Below are positions 11,436 through 62,650 of a DNA stretch of 64,000 bases, piece after piece. The DNA is from Alphaproteobacteria bacterium (lineage in GTDB: Bacteria > Pseudomonadota > Alphaproteobacteria > CACIAM-22H2). The first letter of the stretch is position 1. The number at the start of each line of letters is the position of its first letter. The DNA lies in NCBI GenBank assembly GCA_035457725.1, contig DATIBC010000044.1, positions 84,067 to 148,066 on the forward strand, written 5' to 3'. Under the pieces are notes generated by a model. The model saw only the letters and a list, made by a program, of their open reading frames with translations. It made no database searches and had not been told where the DNA came from. Position numbers and translations under genes: made by a program.

Positions 11436-11945
11436 TCACCTTTCTTTTTCAACAGGTTCTTTGAGCATGTTGAGCTCCGCCGCCGGCAGGTCGGCCGCCA
11501 GCTCGGAGGCGGTTTTGCGCTGCACCGGGTGGCGCCATTGGGGGGCGATCTCGGCGATTGGCGTCAGCACGAAACGGCGCAAATGGGCGCGCGCATGCGG
11601 CAGCGTTGGTCCCGGCGGCCCGTTGCGGATCATTCCGTGGTAGTCGATCAGATCGAGATCGAGCGTCCGCGCGGCGTTCGGCACGGTCCGCACGCGGCCA
11701 TATCTGCGTTCGAGCATGTGAAGCAACCGCAGCAAATCGTCGGCGGAACGCTCCGTCTCGACGACGGCGACGCCGTTTACATAATGCGGTTGATCGGCCG
11801 GCGGGTTGGGAGCCGACACATACCAGTGGGAGCGGCGCACGATCCGTACCGATTCACCCGCGAGGTCTACCAGTGCAGCCTCGAGCGTGGCGCGGGGCGG
11901 GCCCGCTTTGCTGGGCAAATTGGCGCCGAGGGCGATAAGGATCAT
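11436..11945 (-). CDS. folK: 2-amino-4-hydroxy-6-hydroxymethyldihydropteridine pyrophosphokinase (HPPK)
   Basis: 169 aa. ILIALGANL N-terminus and RTLDLDLI motif typical of FolK. Confidence 0.8.
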   Translation of the reverse strand: MILIALGANLPSKAGPPRATLEAALVDLAGESVRIVRRSHWYVSAPNPPADQPHYVNGVAVVETERSADDLLRLLHMLERRYGRVRTVPNAARTLDLDLIDYHGMIRNGPPGPTLPHARAHLRRFVLTPIAEIAPQWRHPVQRKTASELAADLPAAELNMLKEPVEKER

Positions 11946-12076
11946 TTCTTCCCCGCCGCCGGCCCTCCGGAGAATCTTGCTTGTTCGCCGGCCATGGCCT
12001 CGTTAAGTATTCAGGTAATTGGCTAACGCCCGACCTGGTCGGCGCACCTTATGTTCAAAGGTAAGGAGATACTGCA

Positions 12077-12670
12077 ATGACATTTTATCCGCAGGAGCGC
12101 CTTGGATTGTTCATCGACGGCGCAAATCTCTACTCCGCGGCGCGTACGCTTGGTTTTGAGATCGATTATCGACGGCTACTGACGTTGTTCTCGGGAAAGG
12201 GACGGTTGATCCGCGCTTTTTATTATACGGCGCTGATCGAGGACCAGGAGTATTCCCCGATCCGGCCGCTGATCGATTGGCTCGACTACAACGGCTACAC
12301 AATGGTGACCAAGCCGATCAAGGAGTTCACCGACGCGTACGGCAGACGGAAGATCAAGGGCAATATGGACATCGAACTCGCCATCGACATGCTGGAGATG
12401 GCGGACAAGCTCGATCATATCGTCTTGTTCTCGGGCGACGGCGATTTTCGGCGCCTGGTCGAAGCGGTTCAGCGCAAAGGCGTCCGTGTCAGCGTCGTGT
12501 CGACGATTCGCACTCAGCCGCCGATGGTGGCCGACGAATTGCGCCGGCAGGCCGATACCTTCATCGAACTCCAGGAACTGATGGCGCATATCCAACGCAA
12601 CGTCGAGCGGCGCGATATCGCAACGCCGGCCAATCCCGATCGCGTATACCAAGAGCGCGAGTCCGCCTGA
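12077..12670 (+). CDS. NYN (LabA-like) domain protein
   Basis: 197 aa. The GLFIDGANLY ... DGDF pattern of NYN/LabA PIN-like nucleases. Its GC content is lower than that of its neighbours. Confidence 0.65.
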   Translation: MTFYPQERLGLFIDGANLYSAARTLGFEIDYRRLLTLFSGKGRLIRAFYYTALIEDQEYSPIRPLIDWLDYNGYTMVTKPIKEFTDAYGRRKIKGNMDIELAIDMLEMADKLDHIVLFSGDGDFRRLVEAVQRKGVRVSVVSTIRTQPPMVADELRRQADTFIELQELMAHIQRNVERRDIATPANPDRVYQERESA

Positions 12671-22905: not shown

Positions 22906-24060
22906 TTAGAACACCGGGATGATATCGGCGGGGTCGAAGGCGACGGTTCTGCCGTCGATGCCGATTTCGGGGATTCCAGGGAATTCGACGCCATGCGGCT
23001 CGAGCAGGCCCTTCATCTTCAACACCGCGGCGCGCCAGTTCTCCCGCCGCTCGGCAAGGGTGAGAATTCCGAGACCAGCATCGCGCGCCACCTCCTCGAG
23101 CATGAAATGCGCTGGACGCCACGTCTCCGGAAGCTCCCAGAACTGCCCCGGCGGCTCATAGAGGATGCCTGAAAGAAAAACGTACCCAGCGCGAAGCTGC
23201 TTGGTGATCTGCGCTCGCATCTCGTCGGTGAGTTTTGGCAGCAGCCGGTCGAGAATGGCGAGACAAATGCCCATGTGGCGCGCCTCGTCACGGCCGACGT
23301 TGCGGAACGCTTCCTTGAACACCGGGATCGTTGTCCGCTGATACATGCTGTGAAACAGCGTCGCCGAGGCAACCTCGCCCATGAGGAACGAAGTAAACAA
23401 GATGGCGAGCGGGTACTTGCCGACGCCCTTCTTGAAGCCCTCCCAGTATCGACCGCCGTTATGGTAGTACCAGAGCACGTTGTTGCGCGCCAATTTGCCG
23501 AGCGGCGTTTCGGGTGCGTAGCCGAGCGGGCCGTTCGGCGTCAGCGATTGAATCGCGAGCTGGCAAATCTCCTCATGATTGACCTCGTCGCGCGTCACCG
23601 AGAAGAAGCACTTGCGGACCGGGTCTTCCTCATGGCTTTCGTACGTGTGGATCATCGCCCGGGCGAAGACCGCGGGGCCCGATGAATCGAAAACCGACAA
23701 CAGCGCCCACCAGTACGCCATCGCATAGCGTTGATCGAGGGTGAACGCGTTCACTTCGAGCGTACTCCAAGGCAGCTTGTTCGGCGCCCATCCGGGATCG
23801 CGCGAGGAATCGTAAATCTGCGCCAGCTTCGGCGTTTCGACGCGCCATTCGAGCGGAAATATGTTGCCTTCCTTGAACGGCGGCGGTTCGCGTGTGCCAA
23901 AAAGTATCGTCGTCGCGTCGGGTGCGGCGACCGGATTTGAGGGTGGCGCGGCGAGCTGCGCGACCAGATTATCCGCTGTTTTCGCGGCGCGTCCGGGCAT
24001 TACTGAAACTCCTTGCGTTGCGACGTGCGTCAAAATATTCGCTGACCGCTTGGTCGGCAA
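22906..24060 (-). CDS. Ferritin-like di-iron carboxylate protein (putative oxygenase/desaturase; family not assignable from sequence)
   Basis: 384 aa. Two EXXH motifs about 110 residues apart (DEVNHEE and DEARHMG), plus additional conserved Glu (YESHEE, LMGEV). This is the ligand spacing of soluble di-iron enzymes (acyl-ACP-desaturase / AurF / R2-like). There are no Cys/His Rieske or heme motifs. Confidence 0.5.
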   Translation of the reverse strand: MPTKRSANILTHVATQGVSVMPGRAAKTADNLVAQLAAPPSNPVAAPDATTILFGTREPPPFKEGNIFPLEWRVETPKLAQIYDSSRDPGWAPNKLPWSTLEVNAFTLDQRYAMAYWWALLSVFDSSGPAVFARAMIHTYESHEEDPVRKCFFSVTRDEVNHEEICQLAIQSLTPNGPLGYAPETPLGKLARNNVLWYYHNGGRYWEGFKKGVGKYPLAILFTSFLMGEVASATLFHSMYQRTTIPVFKEAFRNVGRDEARHMGICLAILDRLLPKLTDEMRAQITKQLRAGYVFLSGILYEPPGQFWELPETWRPAHFMLEEVARDAGLGILTLAERRENWRAAVLKMKGLLEPHGVEFPGIPEIGIDGRTVAFDPADIIPVF

Positions 24061-24199
24061 ATCACAATCTGTGGCATCGACTCAAACAAATCAGGCCTCA
24101 AAGTTAAACTGATTTCTTAGAATTACGGCTGATACTACGTATTAATAATACTCTGTGACGCACTTTAACTCTCACGTATGAGGTATTAAGGCTATTCAG
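24061..24199. promoter_or_regulatory. AT-rich divergent intergenic region (promoters of the di-iron gene and of otsB)
   Basis: About 140 bp at roughly 35-40% GC inside a ~65% GC genome. It contains the near-palindrome GTATTAATAATAC. Confidence 0.3.
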
Positions 24200-36695: not shown

Positions 36696-36819
36696 GTCCC
36701 CCTCGCCCCTCTTCGGCCGGGACCCGATCTCGCCCGCAATCTAACTTCGCGGCCGCGGGGATGAACTGGTTCCCGGTCGTAGCGTCGCTCGCACCGCCGG
36801 TGCCACGGCTGGCGTGCGC

Positions 36820-36960
36820 GATAGGGAAACATCTAGTCGATGAAGCTTAAAGCTTTCGTTAAACAGCGAAAACAATGGTCAAATTAACCTCAAATAGTTA
36901 TGGTAAATTCAGAGACTTTTAGACAAATGAAATCTATTTATTATTGTTAGCCATGTAACC
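36820..36960. promoter_or_regulatory. AT-rich island within a 380-bp intergenic region upstream of the CBS-domain gene
   Basis: About 140 bp at under 35% GC. It contains the near-palindrome GAAGCTTAAAGCTTTC and runs of A/T. Confidence 0.25.
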
Positions 36961-43062: not shown

Positions 43063-44838
43063 ATGACCGTCGACCAGGCGCTCGCGATATCGCTTGTCAT
43101 CGGTGCGCTTGGCCTCTTCGCCTGGGGTCGATGGCGCTACGATCTTGTAGCCCTGATCGCCCTTGCCGCGGGACTGGCGATGGGCGTCGTTCCAGCCGAC
43201 CAGGCGTTCGCCGGTTTCGGGCACCCCGCGGTGATCACGGTCGTCGCGGTGCTGATTGTCAGCCGCGCCTTGACGCTGTCGGGGGCAGTCGACGGGCTGG
43301 CCAAGGCGACCCTCCCGACCGCTGGCCCGGTATGGCTGCAGGTCGGCGCGCTGTCGATCGCAGTCGCAATGATGTCCGCCTTCATGAACAACGTCGGCGC
43401 CCTCGCCCTGATCATGCCGGCGGCGATCGCCGCGGCGAAGAAGTCGGAGCGATCGCCCTCGCTGATCTTGATGCCGATCGCGTTCGCCTCGATGCTTGGC
43501 GGCATGATCACACTGATCGGCACGCCGCCTAACCTGCTGGTCGCCGCCTATCGAGCCGAGGCGGTCGGCCGGCCCTTTGCGATGTTCGACTTCGCCCCGG
43601 TCGGCGGCGTCGTCGCGATTGTCGGCATCGTCTTCGTCGCGCTCGTCGGTTGGCGTCTTATACCGCGGGGAGCGCGCGCCGATCCCAAGGATCGCTTCGA
43701 TATCGCCGGCTATGTCATGGAGGCGCGGCTGCCCGACGACAGCGCGCATGCCGGCAAGTCGGTCGGCGAAATCGACGCGCTGCTGGAAAAAGACGACGTC
43801 GACGCGCTGGGGATCGTGCGCGCGAAGCACGAGATTCCTTGGAGCGCCACCTGGGAGCGCGTCGCGGGTGGTGACGTGTTGATCCTCGAAGGCACTCCCG
43901 ACGCCCTCAAAGTCGCGATCGACGGTTTGAAGCTCGAGCTGCCGGCCGATGACGCGCCGCCCGCGCCGCACCTCGAATCCGAGGAGATGTCGATTGTCGA
44001 GGCGGTGGTCATGCCGCGGGCACTGATCGACGGTCTGACCGCCGAGGAGATCCGGCTGCGGTCCCGCTATGACATCAGCCTGCTTGCGGTCGCGCGCGCC
44101 GGGTCTCGGCACCGCGGCCGCCTGAAGTCGTTTCGCTTTACCGCAGGTGACGTGCTACTGCTCCGCGGGCCAACGCGGCAGGTCAATTCGGCGATGTCGA
44201 TGCTGGGCCTGCTGCCGCTGGCTAGCCGCGGCGTCGGCCTCGGCCGCCCAGGGCGGGCGCTTGCCGCGGTTGCGATCACGCTGACCGCGCTGGTCGCTTC
44301 GGCGCTCTCATTGGCGCCCACCGCGGTCTGCTTTCTCGGCGCCGTTATCGTCCTGATCTTGTCGCGGTGCATTCGCCTCGGGGAGAGCTACGACGCGATC
44401 GATTGGCCGATCGTCGTGCTGCTCGGGGCGATGCTCCCCGTAGGCGGGGCGCTCGAGAGCACGGGTGCGACGAAATTTCTCGCCGACCTGTTCCTGTCCG
44501 CGGGCGACCGGATTTCGCCGATCTTGATGCTGGCGCTCGTCTTGATATTGACGATGACCATTTCGGATATCGTCAACAACGCGGCGACCGCGGTCATGAT
44601 GGCGCCGCTTGCGGTCGGGATCGCCCGCGGCCTTGAGGTCAATCCCGACGGATTCTTAATGGCCGTGGCGATCGGCGCATCGTGCGCCTTCCTCACGCCC
44701 ATCGGCCATCAGAACAACACCTTGGTCATGGGACCTGGAGGCTACCGCTTCGGCGATTATTGGCCGATGGGCTTGCCCCTCGAGATCATCGTGGTCGCCA
44801 CCGCGCTGCCGGCGATCCTCGTCATCTGGCCGTTGTGA
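43063..44838 (+). CDS. SLC13/DASS-family permease with two central TrkA-C (RCK_C) domains
   Basis: 591 aa. N- and C-terminal CitMHS/DASS transmembrane repeats flank a cytoplasmic TrkA-C pair. Confidence 0.8.
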   Translation: MTVDQALAISLVIGALGLFAWGRWRYDLVALIALAAGLAMGVVPADQAFAGFGHPAVITVVAVLIVSRALTLSGAVDGLAKATLPTAGPVWLQVGALSIAVAMMSAFMNNVGALALIMPAAIAAAKKSERSPSLILMPIAFASMLGGMITLIGTPPNLLVAAYRAEAVGRPFAMFDFAPVGGVVAIVGIVFVALVGWRLIPRGARADPKDRFDIAGYVMEARLPDDSAHAGKSVGEIDALLEKDDVDALGIVRAKHEIPWSATWERVAGGDVLILEGTPDALKVAIDGLKLELPADDAPPAPHLESEEMSIVEAVVMPRALIDGLTAEEIRLRSRYDISLLAVARAGSRHRGRLKSFRFTAGDVLLLRGPTRQVNSAMSMLGLLPLASRGVGLGRPGRALAAVAITLTALVASALSLAPTAVCFLGAVIVLILSRCIRLGESYDAIDWPIVVLLGAMLPVGGALESTGATKFLADLFLSAGDRISPILMLALVLILTMTISDIVNNAATAVMMAPLAVGIARGLEVNPDGFLMAVAIGASCAFLTPIGHQNNTLVMGPGGYRFGDYWPMGLPLEIIVVATALPAILVIWPL

Positions 44839-45036
44839 CGGCGCTATCCGGTGCTGCTGCCTCGGATTCGGCCGGTAAGCCATCATCCAAAAGCACGACT
44901 TGCCCTGCGGCTCGTTCCGAAATATTGTCAAAAAAAAGTCTAAAAGGCGTTCTTGCCGACGATTGACGCATAAGCTCAAACTTATGGTTAATTTTCGGCT
45001 GGGGCGCGAGCGATAAGAACAAGTCGGGGAGCGCCC

Positions 45037-52862: not shown

Positions 52863-54104
52863 ATGGACGAAGGCTTGACACAAGATCAGTTGGACATTCG
52901 CGCACGCGCGCGCGCCTTGGCCCTCCGCGTGATGGCACCGGCCGCCGCCGAAATCGACCGCAGCGAGGCTTATCCTTGGGGCCACGTCGCGGCACTCCGC
53001 GAGGCCGGTTTCATGGGCATGACCATCCCACAACGCTACGGCGGACAAGGCCGCTCGTATCTCGACGCGGTGCTGGTGATCGAGGAGATGGCCAAGTATT
53101 GCGGCGTCTCGGCGCGAATCGTCGTCGAGGCCAACATGGGGGCGATCGGCGCGATCATGGCCTATGGACGCGAGGACCAAAAGCGTCGCGCCGCCGAACT
53201 CGTGCTCGGCGGCGACAAGCCGGCGATCTGCATCACCGAGCCCGCTGCCGGCAGCGCCGCGACCGAGATGACGACGCGCGCCGACCGCAAGCGCGGCGGT
53301 TATGTCCTCAATGGCCGCAAGCATTGGATCACCGGCGGTGGCGTGTCGCGGCTGCATCTGATCTTTGCCCGCGTCTTCGATGAACGCGGCGCGGAACAGG
53401 GGATCGGTGGATTCATCGTCGAGCGCGATCCCGAGACCGGCGCGCCGAAGGGGCTTGTCATCGGCAGGCGCGAGCCAGCGATGGGATTGCGGGGGATTCC
53501 CGAAACCGAGATCATTTTCGACAACCTCGAAGCTGCGGAAAGCGCTTTGCTCGTCCCGCCGCGCGGCCTGGCGCATGGCTTCGGAGATCTTATGGACGCC
53601 TACAACGGCCAGCGCGTCGGCGCCGCGACGGTAGCGCTCGGGTTGGCGCAAGGCGCCTATGACAAGGCGCTCGCCTACGCCAAGTCGCGTGAGCAATTCG
53701 GCCGGCCGATCGCCGAGTTCCAGGGCCTACAGTGGCTGCTTGCCGACATGAGCATCGCGCTCGCCGCGGCGCGTGCGCTGGTCTGGCGCGCCGCACGTTC
53801 GGCGCCGCCCGACGGATTCCCCGATCAGCTTGCCGCCGCGCAGGCCAAGGTGCTGGCGTCCGAAACCGCGATCAAGGTCACCAACGACGCGCTGCAGGTC
53901 TGGGGCGCCGCCGGGTATTCGCGTGACAACCCGATGGAGCGCTACGTCCGCGACGCGCGCATGTTCGCCATCGCCGGCGGCACGGCGCAAGTTTTGCGAA
54001 CGTTGGTCGCATCGCAGCTCCTTGGACAAAAGCTGCCGCAGACGCGTGACGGATACACTCGCCTCGCCCAGGCCAAGTCGACGCGCGCCAAGGCGGCCGA
54101 GTAA
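52863..54104 (+). CDS. Acyl-CoA dehydrogenase family protein
   Basis: 413 aa with ACAD N-terminal, middle and C-terminal domains. The catalytic-base region is present near the C-terminus (YSRDNPMERYVRDAR). Confidence 0.85.
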   Translation: MDEGLTQDQLDIRARARALALRVMAPAAAEIDRSEAYPWGHVAALREAGFMGMTIPQRYGGQGRSYLDAVLVIEEMAKYCGVSARIVVEANMGAIGAIMAYGREDQKRRAAELVLGGDKPAICITEPAAGSAATEMTTRADRKRGGYVLNGRKHWITGGGVSRLHLIFARVFDERGAEQGIGGFIVERDPETGAPKGLVIGRREPAMGLRGIPETEIIFDNLEAAESALLVPPRGLAHGFGDLMDAYNGQRVGAATVALGLAQGAYDKALAYAKSREQFGRPIAEFQGLQWLLADMSIALAAARALVWRAARSAPPDGFPDQLAAAQAKVLASETAIKVTNDALQVWGAAGYSRDNPMERYVRDARMFAIAGGTAQVLRTLVASQLLGQKLPQTRDGYTRLAQAKSTRAKAAE

Positions 54105-55333
54105 TGACGGCCCAGTCGCTCGCCGGCCTGCGTATCTTCGATCTCACCCGCATTCTCGCCGGACCGACCTGCACCCAGCTTCTCGGCGATCTCGGCGCCG
54201 ACGTGATCAAGATCGAGCGGCCTGGCGTCGGCGACGACACGCGCAAATGGGGCCCGCCTTATCTCAAGGACAGGCACGGGCGGGAGAGCCACGAGAGCGC
54301 GTATTACCTGTCGTCCAACCGCAACAAGCGCTCGTTGACGCTCGACATCGCCAGACCCGAAGGACAGGTGTTGGCCCGCCGCTTGATCGGCGAATGCGAC
54401 GTCATGGTCGAGAACTTCAAGGTCGGCGACATGGCGAAGTACGGCCTAGCCTATGAGCAGTTGAAGCCGGTCGCGCCGCGCCTCGTTTATTGCTCGATCA
54501 CGGGATTTGGCCAGAGCGGCCCCTACGCGCCGCGGGCCGGCTATGATCTGTTGGCGCAAGGCATGGGCGGGATCATGAGCATCACCGGCCAGCCGGAGGG
54601 TACGCCGGGCTCGGAGCCGATGAAAGTCGGCGTCGGCATCGCCGACGTGATGACCGGGATGTACTCGACAGTCGCTATTCTCGCCGCGCTTCGCCACCGC
54701 GACGCCACCGGCGAGGGCCAGTGGATCGACATGGCGCTGCTCGACACGCAGGTCGCCTGGTTGATCAACGAAGCCATGAATTACCTGCTCAGCGGCGAGG
54801 TGCCGAAGCGGCGCGGCAATGCCCACCCCAACATCGTCCCATACCAGGTCTTCCCGGCGGCCGACGGCTATGTGCTCCTCGCCGTCGGCAACGACGGCCA
54901 ATATCGAAAGTTCTGCGAGTTCGCCGGTGCGCCCGAGCTGGCGGACGATCCGCGCTTCGCGTCCAACCCGCTTCGCGTCAAGCATCGCGCGACGTTGGTG
55001 GGGATCGTTACCGATCTAACCAAGCGTAAGACGCGCCAAGAATGGGTCGACGGGCTTGCCCGGCTTGGCGTTCCCTGCTCGCCGGTGAACGATGTCGCCC
55101 AGGTGTTCGACGACCCGCAGATCGTCCACCGCGCCATGAAACAGACGATGCGGCATGACGGTCTCGGCGCCGATATGCCGTTTGTCGCCAACCCAATCCG
55201 CATGAGCGCCACGCCGCCTCGCTATCGGCGCGCGCCGCCGCTTTGCGGACAGCACACCGATGAGCTGTTGCGCGAACTGCTCGGCTTGCGCGACGACGAG
55301 ATCGCCCAGCTTCGCGCCAAGGGGGTGGTGTAG
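54104..55333 (+). CDS. CoA-transferase family III (CaiB/BaiF/Frc-like)
   Basis: 409 aa. N-terminal GLRIFDLTRILAGPTCTQLLGDLGADVIKIE signature. It overlaps the ACAD stop (TAATG). Confidence 0.85.
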   Translation: MTAQSLAGLRIFDLTRILAGPTCTQLLGDLGADVIKIERPGVGDDTRKWGPPYLKDRHGRESHESAYYLSSNRNKRSLTLDIARPEGQVLARRLIGECDVMVENFKVGDMAKYGLAYEQLKPVAPRLVYCSITGFGQSGPYAPRAGYDLLAQGMGGIMSITGQPEGTPGSEPMKVGVGIADVMTGMYSTVAILAALRHRDATGEGQWIDMALLDTQVAWLINEAMNYLLSGEVPKRRGNAHPNIVPYQVFPAADGYVLLAVGNDGQYRKFCEFAGAPELADDPRFASNPLRVKHRATLVGIVTDLTKRKTRQEWVDGLARLGVPCSPVNDVAQVFDDPQIVHRAMKQTMRHDGLGADMPFVANPIRMSATPPRYRRAPPLCGQHTDELLRELLGLRDDEIAQLRAKGVV

Positions 55334-55401
55334 ACGTGGTTGTCCGCCGCAGAGCGCCAATTTAGAACCGCCCCAAAAGCAAAAAGTATTATACTTACTC
55401 C

Positions 55402-55653
55402 ATGATCTATCGTCCCGGGCAGCCGGCTCCAGAGTCCGGCATCTATGAGATTGTCGACATAAAGGAACGGTCTATTGGCGCCGAACGCGCGGTGGCCAAA
55501 GGTGACCCGCTCCCGCCGCCCGTCGGTGCGGGGTATGGGTACAGGCTCAAGACGCGAGTAACTACGGTCTATACATCTGTCTCCTCCGCGTCGGTGTTGA
55601 CAAGCACGGCAACCGAATACGCCGGCGTCCTGGAGCGACTTGCCAAGAAATAG
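55402..55653 (+). CDS. Small protein overlapping the doc start (candidate antitoxin; N-terminal region YjzC-like)
   Basis: 83 aa. Its 3' end overlaps the doc start by 14 nt. GC is low and GC3 is unusually low for this genome. There is no Phd/YefM, RHH or AbrB signature. The N-terminus YRPGQPAPESGIYEIV resembles the YjzC small-protein family. Confidence 0.35.
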   Translation: MIYRPGQPAPESGIYEIVDIKERSIGAERAVAKGDPLPPPVGAGYGYRLKTRVTTVYTSVSSASVLTSTATEYAGVLERLAKK

Positions 55654-56038
55654 GACGCACTACCGAATCACGTTGGCGGACGCGCTCGAAGGGCACCGTC
55701 TGGCGCTCACGTTTTCCGGGCGATCTGGAATTTTGAATCGGAGCCTACTGGAATCGGCGATTGCCCGACCATACAGCGGTCATTATCGCTTAATCCATCA
55801 AAAGACAGCGGCTCTCGTCCATGGCGTTGTCAAGAACCACGCGTTTGTCGATGGAAACAAGCGTACTGCCGTCTTTCTTATGGATCTGCTGCTCAAGAGG
55901 TCGGGGTACCGGCTTGAGGCGCGCGACAAGTCAAAAGGAGACGTGGCTTTGGAGGAAATGATTCTCGATGTCGCCAACGGATCTATGACTGTATCCGAGA
56001 TCGCCGATTGGTTTCGGCAGCGCATTCGGCCAACCTAG
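55640..56038 (+). CDS. doc: Doc (death-on-curing) family toxin, Fic fold
   Basis: 132 aa. Doc-type Fic motif HAFVDGNKRTA and the N-terminal LT..DAL helix. It begins at a TTG within the upstream ORF's last codons. Confidence 0.8.
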   Translation: MPRNRTHYRITLADALEGHRLALTFSGRSGILNRSLLESAIARPYSGHYRLIHQKTAALVHGVVKNHAFVDGNKRTAVFLMDLLLKRSGYRLEARDKSKGDVALEEMILDVANGSMTVSEIADWFRQRIRPT

Positions 56039-56114
56039 ACAGCGTCTGAATTAACGATGCTGGCAGCCTTCGGAGATTCGCTGCGCGCGCCCAGCCGGTG
56101 CGCGCGCGCAAGCC

Positions 56115-57143
56115 TCAGTCGATGACCTCATCCGCTCGCGCAAGCAGAGCGGCGGGCACGTCGAGGCCGAGCGCCCTGGCGGTCGATAGGTTGATCGCCA
56201 GCTCGAAGTTGGTCGGCTGCCCGATCGGAATTTCGGCGGACTTTCTACCTTTGAGGATTCGATCCACATACCCTGCGGCCTCGCGGAAAAGCCCTTGCGC
56301 GCTCGAGCCGTAGGACATCAAGCCACCTGCCTCGGTTGCTTCCCGCCAGGGGTACGCCGCAGGCATTCGGTTGGCGGCGGCGAACGCCACGATGCGATGA
56401 ATATTTATGAACATTATCGGGCCGTGCGAGACGAGAAGCCCGTCGGCGCGCTCACGCGATAGCGTCGCGAATGCCCGATCGAGATCCTCGGCTTGGTCGA
56501 CTGCGACAAATAGCCCGGGCGCCGCCGCCGAATCCGTCTCACCACGGTACGCCGCCCAGGCGAGAGTCGTTCCGAGGAACGCCAGACGCTCCGTCTTGGG
56601 AACCAGCTCCTTGAAAAACTGGAGCCGCTTTTCATACAGCTCGCGACCGGTCGTGGTCGTGACACCGGTCAGATTGCCGCCCGGACGGGCGAGGCTTGCG
56701 ACAAGACCCGTCGCCTCAGGGTCGCGGTTGAACAAGGCGACAATTGGGATCGTGCGGGTCGCCGCATGGGCAGCCTCGATGAGCCAGTCCGCTGCGCCCG
56801 CAAAGATCACGTCGACGCCGCGCGCGACAAACTCGGCGATTATGTCCGGCACCCGCTCGCGCCGACTCTCGGCCGACCTCCGCAGGATGATTACGGTGCG
56901 TCCATCGATCCACCCCAGATCGCGCAGGCGGTGCAAAAAGGCTCGCGCCGGACGATTGGCTGGATCGGGTCCCGAAATCTCCGCCAGGGTCGGATCGCCC
57001 GCGACCCAGCCTATCGTCGGCAGCGCCGCCGTCCGCTGAGCCTGAGCCACCAGTGGCCGCGCCATCGCCACGGCAACGGCACCGGGTAGTAATTGGAGAA
57101 TCTCTCGCCGGCGCACCCGTCCCCCCCTCGTCCGCGCCAACAA
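56115..57143 (-). CDS. Orphan periplasmic substrate-binding protein (ABC_sub_bind-like) with Tat-type signal
   Basis: 342 aa. [16 protein letters not shown] twin-arginine signal. No cognate permease or ATPase is adjacent. Confidence 0.65.
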
Positions 57144-61477: not shown

Positions 61478-62650
61478 ATGCCGTATGACGCAATCCTAGA
61501 TTGTCACTACGCTTCCCTGGCCGACGGAACTCGCATGCCGCCGCGCGCCCTCACCGACATCGAACGACGAGACTGGCTTCGCCTTATTCGCAGCGAGAAT
61601 GTCGGACCGATAACCTTCTTCCATTTATTGCGGCGGTTCGGATCGGCCGCGGCGGCCCTCGACGCGCTACCCGAATTGTCGCGCCGTGGCGGCCGCGCTC
61701 GCGCGCTGATCGTGCACCCAAAATCGAGAGCCGAAGACGAGATCGCCGAAACGTCGCGGCTAGGCGCACGGTTGGTCGCCCATGGCGAGCCCGAATATCC
61801 GCCGCCCCTCGCAGCCATCGAAGACGCGCCGCCGTTGATCACCGTCAAGGGCCACATCCATCTCGTCAGTCGCCCTGCGGTCGCGGTCGTCGGCGCTCGC
61901 AACGCTTCGGCCAACGGGGTTCGCTTCGCCCGGCAGCTCGCCGCCGAGCTCGGCGCGGCGGGGCTGGTCGTCGTCTCGGGGCTGGCGCGCGGCATCGACA
62001 CCGCAGCGCATGTCGGCGCGCTCGACAGCGGGACCATCGCTGCGCTCGCCGGGGGAATCGACGTCGTCTACCCGCCGGACAACGAGACGCTTCATACCGA
62101 GATCGGCGCCCGCGGCCTGCTGTTGACCGAGATGCCGCCCGGCACTGTCCCGACCGCCACCCATTTCCCGCGTCGTAATCGTCTCATTTCCGGCGCGGCG
62201 CTTGGCTTGGTCGTCGTCGAGGCGGCGCGTCGGTCGGGCTCTTTGATCACCGCCCGCCTTGCCTTGGAGCAAGGCCGCGAGGTATTCGCGGTCCCCGGTT
62301 CGCCGCTCGATCCTCGCGCGCAAGGCGCAAATCAACTGATCCGCTCGGGCGCCACATTGATCGAAACTGCCGAAGAAATCGTGCGCGCCCTCAAACCGCT
62401 CATCGATCGCCCGCTTGGCGAGCCGCGATCCGCTTGGGACGACCCGGGGGTAAGCCCACTTGCCGACGGCGCCGACATGCCGGCGACTAGGGAATTAATC
62501 CTCGAAAAACTATCGCCAACACCCACCCCGGTTGACGAAATCATTCGGCAGTGCCAATTGTCAGCAGCAACCGTGTTGACGGTACTGTTGGAACTGGAGC
62601 TGGCCGGCAGGCTGTTGAGGCACCCCGGAAACCAGGTTTCTCTCCAATAG
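61478..62650 (+). CDS. dprA: DNA-processing protein DprA (Smf)
   Basis: 390 aa with a Rossmann-like DprA core (VAVVGARNASANG...GLARGIDTAAH) and a C-terminal winged-helix domain. Confidence 0.85.
   Translation: MPYDAILDCHYASLADGTRMPPRALTDIERRDWLRLIRSENVGPITFFHLLRRFGSAAAALDALPELSRRGGRARALIVHPKSRAEDEIAETSRLGARLVAHGEPEYPPPLAAIEDAPPLITVKGHIHLVSRPAVAVVGARNASANGVRFARQLAAELGAAGLVVVSGLARGIDTAAHVGALDSGTIAALAGGIDVVYPPDNETLHTEIGARGLLLTEMPPGTVPTATHFPRRNRLISGAALGLVVVEAARRSGSLITARLALEQGREVFAVPGSPLDPRAQGANQLIRSGATLIETAEEIVRALKPLIDRPLGEPRSAWDDPGVSPLADGADMPATRELILEKLSPTPTPVDEIIRQCQLSAATVLTVLLELELAGRLLRHPGNQVSLQ

Follow-up and report, generated by a model that had tools for sequence, protein, structure and literature searches.

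A Doc-family toxin gene that overlaps the gene of a putative antitoxin with a YjzC-like N-terminal domain

In the Phd-Doc systems of P1 and Salmonella, translation is brought to a halt by Doc, which phosphorylates EF-Tu, and a stretch of 22 aa at the C-terminus of Phd (residues 52-73) is enough for Doc to be bound and inhibited (PMC9207808). Doc also occurs with other antitoxins: ten groups of different upstream partners were described, the C-terminal end of the MazE-type Doc antitoxins being well conserved (Fico and Mahillon 2006, PMC1626090), and AbrB/MazE and YhfG were listed as Fic/Doc partners by Makarova et al. 2009 (PMC2701414). The small YjzC-like protein Rv1954A, whose function is unknown, is the product of the first gene in the higB1-higA1-secB toxin-antitoxin-chaperone (TAC) operon of M. 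tuberculosis (PMC3912914). Here we describe a two-gene module in a stretch of 64,000 nt from an alphaproteobacterial contig (DATIBC010000044.1, positions 84,067 to 148,066, assembly GCA_035457725.1), hereafter the window. In this module a doc gene begins inside the last codons of an open reading frame (ORF) for an 83-aa protein that carries a YjzC-like N-terminal domain and a C-terminal tail. The module is very probably a chromosomal type II Doc toxin-antitoxin (TA) operon with a YjzC-domain antitoxin, where we infer toxicity, neutralisation and target from sequence comparison. In the literature searched, YjzC was nowhere described as an antitoxin, and YjzC is not among the Doc partner types of PMC1626090 and PMC2701414. 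Both Doc systems and domain shuffling among antitoxins are known already; what is new is the architecture that joins a YjzC domain to the common tail.

Doc and the overlapping gene of the YjzC-domain protein

By its profile matches and catalytic motif, the toxin of the module is a Doc-family toxin. It scored 41.3 bits against the Pfam Fic profile PF02661 (cut-off 24) and 54.4 bits against TIGR01550 DOC_P1 (cut-off 38.65), and it matched PHROG 577 'Doc-like toxin' at 2.7e-20. Its nearest solved relatives were 9vzc, a 'death-on-curing family protein' (9.5e-6), and P1 Doc 3k33 (0.0028). The Doc motif HxFx[D/N][A/G]NKR, in which Lys replaces the second Gly of Fic, is intact. Across 26 members of the Doc clade no variation was seen at F69, G72, N73, K74, R75 and T76, and hardly any at H67; the Fic motif HAFVDGNKRTA pointed out in a preliminary description of the window is thus not degenerate in homologues either. 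The closest Docs in reference genomes, one genome per species being considered, amounted to 80 loci with 30-53% identity and none above 53%. No second Doc was found within the window.

A relative of the entire pair was found on a metagenomic contig (L011), where the end of a CoA-transferase gene is followed downstream by the genes of an 83-aa protein with 71% identity and, after it, of a Doc with 71% identity. Comparison of the two antitoxin genes gave a proportion of non-synonymous differences (pN) of 0.18 and of synonymous differences (pS) of 0.75, corresponding to a ratio of non-synonymous to synonymous rates (dN/dS) of ~0.05, whereas the two shifted frames of the same DNA gave ratios of 2.5 and 1.95. 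Since the ratio is this low in frame and above 1.9 in the shifted frames, the 83-aa ORF is genuinely coding and under strong purifying selection. In a more distant subgroup (L098, L100, L102) dN/dS of the antitoxin gene was 0.10-0.12, and for Doc, compared between the window and L011, it was 0.08.

Both ORFs lie on the same strand and overlap by 14 nt from the TTG start of Doc, which falls inside the antitoxin end (cTTGccaagaaaTAG), in line with the earlier description of Doc as starting within the last codons of its neighbour. The TTG at 55640 is the first possible start of the 132-aa Doc ORF. Translation of Doc most likely starts there, because the His-Tyr-Arg codons directly after the overlap differ between L011 and the window at synonymous positions only and because the peptide MPR..HYR.T is conserved among Doc homologues. 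In nine of ten near-identical contigs Doc was annotated automatically as a 52-aa fragment only, or not at all; the short call starts at an internal ATG (L002-L009; e.g. L002 1688-1846). The likely cause of these truncated calls is that the TTG start lies within the upstream gene, and under-annotation of Doc genes may be systematic in this clade.

A word-indexed search with the 83-aa protein gave 3 matches only, and an exhaustive profile search was used instead, which retrieved 229 relatives. Approximately 27 clusters (50% identity), with proteins of 83-96 aa, align from end to end, while the remaining relatives match residues 2-50 only. In the full-length alignment the N-domain reads PG..AP.SG.YEIV...G..TG..R.V..G.PFPPT...G..Y.L and is followed by a Ser/Thr-rich linker and the tail vYTSvsSaa.i..T...f..aL.RLAKK. 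One retrieved entry, P0003 (111 aa, on a 778-nt ENA contig), is 88% identical to the antitoxin over its first 33 residues; its remaining part, by reading, resembles the C-terminus of a TonB-dependent receptor, and it is probably a chimeric assembly.

The preliminary description had likened the N-terminus of the 83-aa protein to the YjzC small-protein family and found in it no signature of Phd/YefM, ribbon-helix-helix (RHH), AbrB or helix-turn-helix (HTH) antitoxins, and both statements held. The only profile matched by the window protein was YjzC PF14168 (E = 0.0013, 19.5 bits). Among 32 family members, 14 matched PF14168 (best 7.5e-7) and none matched any other Pfam family. The family profile in turn retrieved stand-alone 'YjzC family protein' entries of 55-65 aa at ~1e-14 to 1e-15 and ~50% identity, and tblastn detected annotated YjzC genes on plasmids with 45-54% identity. 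No Phd/YefM, RHH, AbrB or HTH profile in Pfam or NCBIfam was matched by the 83-aa protein; specifically, PF02604 (Phd/YefM) was matched neither by the 32 family members at E <= 0.01 nor by the window protein at E <= 1. Phd-type partners of other Docs, described below, did match this profile. AlphaFold2 models predicted three strands for residues 1-50, with a predicted local distance difference test score (pLDDT) of 85-89, and the same strand pattern for a stand-alone YjzC protein (pLDDT 91). When the family profile was searched against PDB sequences, no match was obtained. The YjzC-like domain matched no solved fold, and no DNA-binding fold was recognised.

YjzC-like domains were also encountered in other settings. 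Proteins with 2 to 7 tandem YjzC-like repeats occur (P0124, 295 aa; P0141, 130 aa; P0253, 1065 aa). Stand-alone YjzC-like genes reside on ColE1-type enterobacterial plasmids of 4-9 kb (L106 2507-2689, Klebsiella plasmid NZ_CP073787.1), where they are divergent from a pair of genes for an HTH regulator and an ImmA/IrrE metallopeptidase, and on Caulobacter pCB4 (L107 2486-2665) such a gene is next to a divergent HTH gene. The neighbourhoods of two further stand-alone YjzC genes, in which a recombinase and a transposase were seen, gave no functional clue.

The C-terminal tail and its association with Doc

The 83-aa protein of the window ends in ...VYTSVSS...YAGVLERLAKK. The AlphaFold2 model placed a low-confidence helix at residues 60-82, with pLDDT <50 for residues 58-73. 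A confidently predicted N-domain combined with a low-confidence C-terminal helix is the usual pattern of antitoxins in such models.

In nine independent lineages (the window, L011, L098/L099, L100, L101, L102/L103, L108, L109 and L111), representing every readable context, a tailed YjzC protein is encoded directly upstream of Doc. The junction cTTGccaagaRgTAA recurs across these lineages, and the overlap of 14 nt is the same in most of them. Furthermore, a metagenome scan with the conserved YjzC pattern from the closer family subgroup yielded 80 loci. Doc lay directly downstream in 3/3 of the tailed and, within the available flanks, in 0/77 of the untailed cases, a split with an exact probability of ~1.2e-5. 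The untailed proteins end ...LVDPTKH. Within the window itself no other tail-bearing ORF was found, and no other small ORF adjoins Doc. The antitoxin was also inspected for the VbhA-type motif [S/T]xxxE[G/N], which is absent: the only near match, STATEY, has Tyr after the Glu, and this Glu is variable in the family.

The partners of other Doc genes were surveyed by scanning the Doc clade alignment over reference genomes, which gave the 80 loci mentioned above. None of their upstream partners carries a YjzC domain. Nevertheless, a hidden Markov model (HMM) of the tail matched many of these partners, with other N-domains, at E-values down to 4e-8 in a small search space. The terminal motif LA[K/D/N/Q/E/R/T][K/R/Q]? 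was present in 55/77 partners vs 16/5925 other ORFs of the same loci, a contrast somewhat inflated by the choice of partner ORFs, which favoured LA-type endings. For the more distant Docs the partner N-domains were PhdYeFM (L067, L091, L093), MazE/AbrB (L053, L062, L069) or weakly matched RHH (L045, L047). In the closest, mostly alphaproteobacterial Doc clade we found a DUF2188 partner (L029 2660-2995, 2.8e-8), a partner with two DUF1508/YegP repeats (L032 2570-3007, 5.7e-36), a recurrent unclassified partner segment, VKGGWv.RDa.tGRF, and other partners that matched no Pfam family. The tail of this clade takes the form ...ALKRLA[D/K/N][R/K] (L029, L032, L021, L026-L028, L031, L033, L036).

As judged from this survey, several small domains of unknown function serve as N-termini of Doc antitoxins. 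The ...L..LAK tail appears to be a portable, Doc-neutralising module carried by at least six N-domains: it is common to Doc antitoxins with unrelated N-domains, and is portable as would be expected of the part that neutralises the toxin. The proposal that the C-terminus of the 83-aa protein is a toxin-binding element thus gained support both from the occurrence of the same tail on Doc partners with unrelated N-domains and from its full co-occurrence with Doc among YjzC proteins. The survey of what precedes close Doc homologues, which had been suggested as a check, returned diverse N-domains with a common ...LAK ending. The earlier characterisation of the protein as a non-canonical antitoxin consequently applies to its YjzC N-domain and not to its tail, which is common in this branch of Doc antitoxins.

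Genomic setting and alternative explanations

The composition of the module is unusual for the window. The guanine-plus-cytosine (GC) content of 55340-56040 is 0.561 compared to a window mean of 0.646 (standard deviation 0.028, z = -3.0 for windows of 700 bp); only 0.24% of the 700-bp windows have a GC content as low, and the stretch is the second-lowest-GC island of the 64 kb. GC at third codon positions (GC3) is 0.68 in the 83-aa ORF and 0.62 in Doc vs 0.74-0.84 in five flanking genes. The lower GC and GC3 reported initially were therefore reproduced, as was the identity of the flanks, which by profile encode a family III CoA-transferase and an ABC substrate-binding protein (Table 1). From its GC and GC3, a foreign origin of the module is plausible. 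The insertion is not recent, though, as judged by the position of its relative, because in L011 the 71%-identical pair stands at the same place after the CoA-transferase gene; the downstream neighbour in L011 differs from that in the window. The horizontal acquisition proposed earlier is thus plausible, but as an event that is not recent. Around the module no flanking direct repeats, tRNA or insertion sequence (IS) were found; 10-nt repeats inside the coding sequence are probably due to chance. On another contig, a Doc pair with 57% identity to that of the window (L012 1241-3787) is flanked by transposase genes of the IS1595 and IS3 families, and therefore this module clade is mobile. The partner in this pair ends ...YGDALKRLAKK after a different N-terminus, with the same overlap of 14 nt.

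Other low-GC stretches of the window (0.55-0.60) are located at 11700-12100, 23450-24100, 36750-36900, 44700-44900 and 62350-62550. The one at ~23.5 kb matches the Doc island in GC and is inside a 384-aa ORF (22906-24060, minus strand), and the one at ~12 kb precedes a 197-aa ORF (12077-12670, plus strand).

Upstream of the antitoxin gene, a perfect inverted repeat overlaps the -10-like hexamer TATACT (55390-55395) and could, speculatively, constitute an operator or promoter. The palindrome is not conserved in L011 or in other lineages, and a scan for consensus sigma-70 promoters found none. In four lineages a -10-like hexamer is situated exactly 6 nt 5' of the antitoxin ATG and no Shine-Dalgarno sequence is present (Table 1). 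L100 and L102 additionally contain TTGGCT 17 nt upstream of this hexamer, and L098 and L101 have a Shine-Dalgarno-like sequence in its place. The short distance of 6 nt between hexamer and ATG and the absence of a Shine-Dalgarno sequence suggest a leaderless antitoxin transcript, as far as this can be read from the DNA. An Rfam search of 55200-56300 gave no matches. A GC-rich hairpin 3' of Doc (56082-56110) folds no better than shuffled sequence (z = -0.87), and for this reason no terminator is claimed there.

Table 1. Features of the Doc module and its surroundings; coordinates refer to the window unless a locus is named
Feature	Coordinates	Strand	Details	Assignment
Antitoxin ORF	55402-55653	+	ATG start, 83 aa plus stop	YjzC-like N-domain and putative Doc-neutralising tail
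YjzC-like N-domain	55402-55557	+	aa 1-52	PF14168; predicted three-stranded beta domain
Linker and tail VTTVYTSVSSASVLTSTATEYAGVLERLAKK	55558-55650	+	aa 53-83	Putative Doc-binding/neutralising element
Doc toxin gene	55640-56038	+	TTG start, 132 aa plus stop	Profile matches
Doc catalytic motif HAFVDGNKRTA	55838-55870	+	aa 67-77; HAFVDGNKR = aa 67-75	
Perfect 6+6 inverted repeat AAGTAT-T-ATACTT	55384-55396		6 nt before antitoxin ATG	Candidate operator/promoter, speculative
-10-like hexamer TATACT	within 55390-55404			
-10-like hexamer TATAAT	within L011 103-118			
-10-like hexamer TATCTA	within L100 186-201			
-10-like hexamer TATCTT	L102/L103; within L102 388-403			
CoA-transferase family III	54104-55333	+		5' flank of module
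ABC substrate-binding protein	56115-57143	-		3' flank, convergent

Several observations weigh against a YjzC-domain antitoxin that neutralises an active Doc. The window protein remains below the Pfam gathering score for YjzC (19.5 vs 25 bits). When the tail profile was compared to P1 Phd by HMM and hhalign, no similarity to the Doc-binding helix, Phd 52-73, was detected; because the tail has no detectable homology to P1 Phd, its likeness to the Phd mechanism is one of position and co-occurrence. For P0152, a tenth family member assessed by annotation only, no Doc is called downstream and a gene is called on the opposite strand. In addition, damaged copies exist: Doc of L001 has lost 1 bp (about 5500; alignment A1 column 573), Doc is frameshifted in L108 (1188-1700) and L111 (1390-1996), and an in-frame stop interrupts the YjzC domain in the antitoxin gene of L111. 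The lesions in L001, L108 and L111 may reflect pseudogenes and decay or metagenome assembly errors.

Among other explanations of the locus, we considered a TA system acting in phage defence by abortive infection, in which a factor of a phage or mobile element would bind or destabilise a YjzC sensor and so free Doc, the mechanism of neutralisation being the same. We regard this as unlikely. The Doc domain does match Fic components of candidate PADLOC systems, but these matches concern the Fic domain alone, and the antitoxin has none. An N-domain that is not recognisable as a DNA-binding fold would suit a sensor, and the joining of the tail to many small domains in the closest Doc clade (YjzC, DUF2188, DUF1508, unclassified) resembles the turnover that typifies defence and counter-defence. 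Mobile contexts (recombinase, transposase, ColE1-type plasmids, pCB4) were also seen for stand-alone YjzC genes. The window locus, however, lies between metabolic and transport genes of housekeeping type and not in a defence island.

It is quite improbable that we see here a remnant, decaying or domesticated, with an inactive Doc, in which the upstream ORF was kept for some other reason and the low GC and codon adaptation reflect relaxed selection. The fragmentary or missing Doc annotation in nine of ten near-identical contigs would fit such a remnant, but is accounted for by the TTG start. Likewise, the deletion in L001 and the frameshifts in L108 and L111 contrast with an intact Doc in the window and in 6/7 aligned sequences (the exception being L001), as well as in L011, L098, L100, L102 and L109, with a dN/dS of Doc of 0.08 and with the invariant catalytic motif. 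Finally, that the 83-aa protein is a co-transcribed accessory first gene product and Doc is controlled otherwise, as suggested by the YjzC-like protein of M. tuberculosis, which is the first gene product of a TA operon and not its antitoxin (PMC3912914), is most improbable given that no other small ORF stands beside Doc and no other Doc-antitoxin tail exists in the window, that the YjzC domain accompanies Doc only if tailed, and that the tail is common to recognised Phd/YefM-, MazE- and RHH-type Doc partners.

Proposed mechanism and comparison with known systems

For a Doc operon with a YjzC-domain antitoxin we propose the following mechanism. The genes of antitoxin and toxin would be translationally coupled, because the last 14 nt of the antitoxin gene already include the TTG start of Doc. 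By homology to the P1 and Salmonella proteins, Doc would phosphorylate EF-Tu and stop translation. The last ~30 residues of the antitoxin, presumably disordered alone, would by analogy adopt a helical fold on Doc, blocking the toxin. The folded YjzC-like beta domain, comprising the first 52 residues, would take the place of the DNA-binding or dimerisation domain of the Phd/YefM, MazE/AbrB or RHH type. Which contribution this domain makes can be graded tentatively: it possibly serves in dimerisation and/or operator binding for autoregulation, the role to which we incline; it could conceivably be a stabilising or protease-recognition scaffold that does not bind DNA, which is somewhat doubtful; and trigger sensing appears rather unlikely.

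We further put forward, as a conjecture that is more doubtful than the operon assignment itself, that the YjzC fold represents an unrecognised N-terminal module of antitoxins, be it as a new fold for DNA binding or dimerisation or as a sensor of a trigger. It might then form, with DUF2188, DUF1508/YegP and unclassified domains, a set of interchangeable platforms onto which a Doc-neutralising tail was repeatedly grafted in Alphaproteobacteria. The YjzC family (PF14168) would gain its first clear functional context, since the domain sits at the regulatory/dimerisation position of an antitoxin. If YjzC is indeed an antitoxin module, the function of the stand-alone YjzC family, including Rv1954A and the enterobacterial plasmid copies, becomes approachable at this locus. 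Moreover, the ...L..LAK tail can help to annotate orphan Doc genes, as profile libraries miss the partners of these genes, and may aid the design of peptides that inhibit Doc.

Comparison with described systems places the module as follows. As in VbhA-VbhT (class I Fic), a small upstream protein would inhibit a Fic-fold enzyme via a helix, but the window antitoxin lacks [S/T]xxxE[G/N], and its toxin has the Doc-type NKR and not the GNGR of Fic. Rv1954A resembles the antitoxin gene in being the first gene of a TA operon (PMC3912914) and represents a second link of the YjzC domain to TA operons. Stand-alone YjzC proteins (PF14168, 55-65 aa), which are widespread, are homologous to residues 1-52 (~50% identity) and share the predicted three-strand fold; unlike the window protein they end ...LVDPTKH, lack the 31-residue tail and have Doc nearby in 0/77 cases. 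With Phd-Doc (P1, Salmonella; 3K33, TIGR01550) the module has in common the antitoxin-first two-gene operon, a small Fic-fold Doc with HxFx[D/N][A/G]NKR, and an antitoxin composed of a folded N-domain and a C-terminal segment expected to turn helical on the toxin. It differs in that the N-domain is YjzC-like and not Phd/YefM, the tail shows no detectable similarity to Phd 52-73, Doc is distant from P1 Doc (E = 0.0028 to 3k33), and the TTG start is inside the antitoxin gene. In TasA-TasB and the composite MazE/AbrB-Doc systems (PMC1626090, PMC2701414) the N-domain is not YjzC, which was seen at 0/80 reference Doc loci, but these systems likewise combine Doc with a non-Phd antitoxin, have a conserved TasA C-terminal end and exchange N-domains in a modular manner, and the MazE-type partners in our survey have the same ...LAK ending as the YjzC-domain protein of the window.

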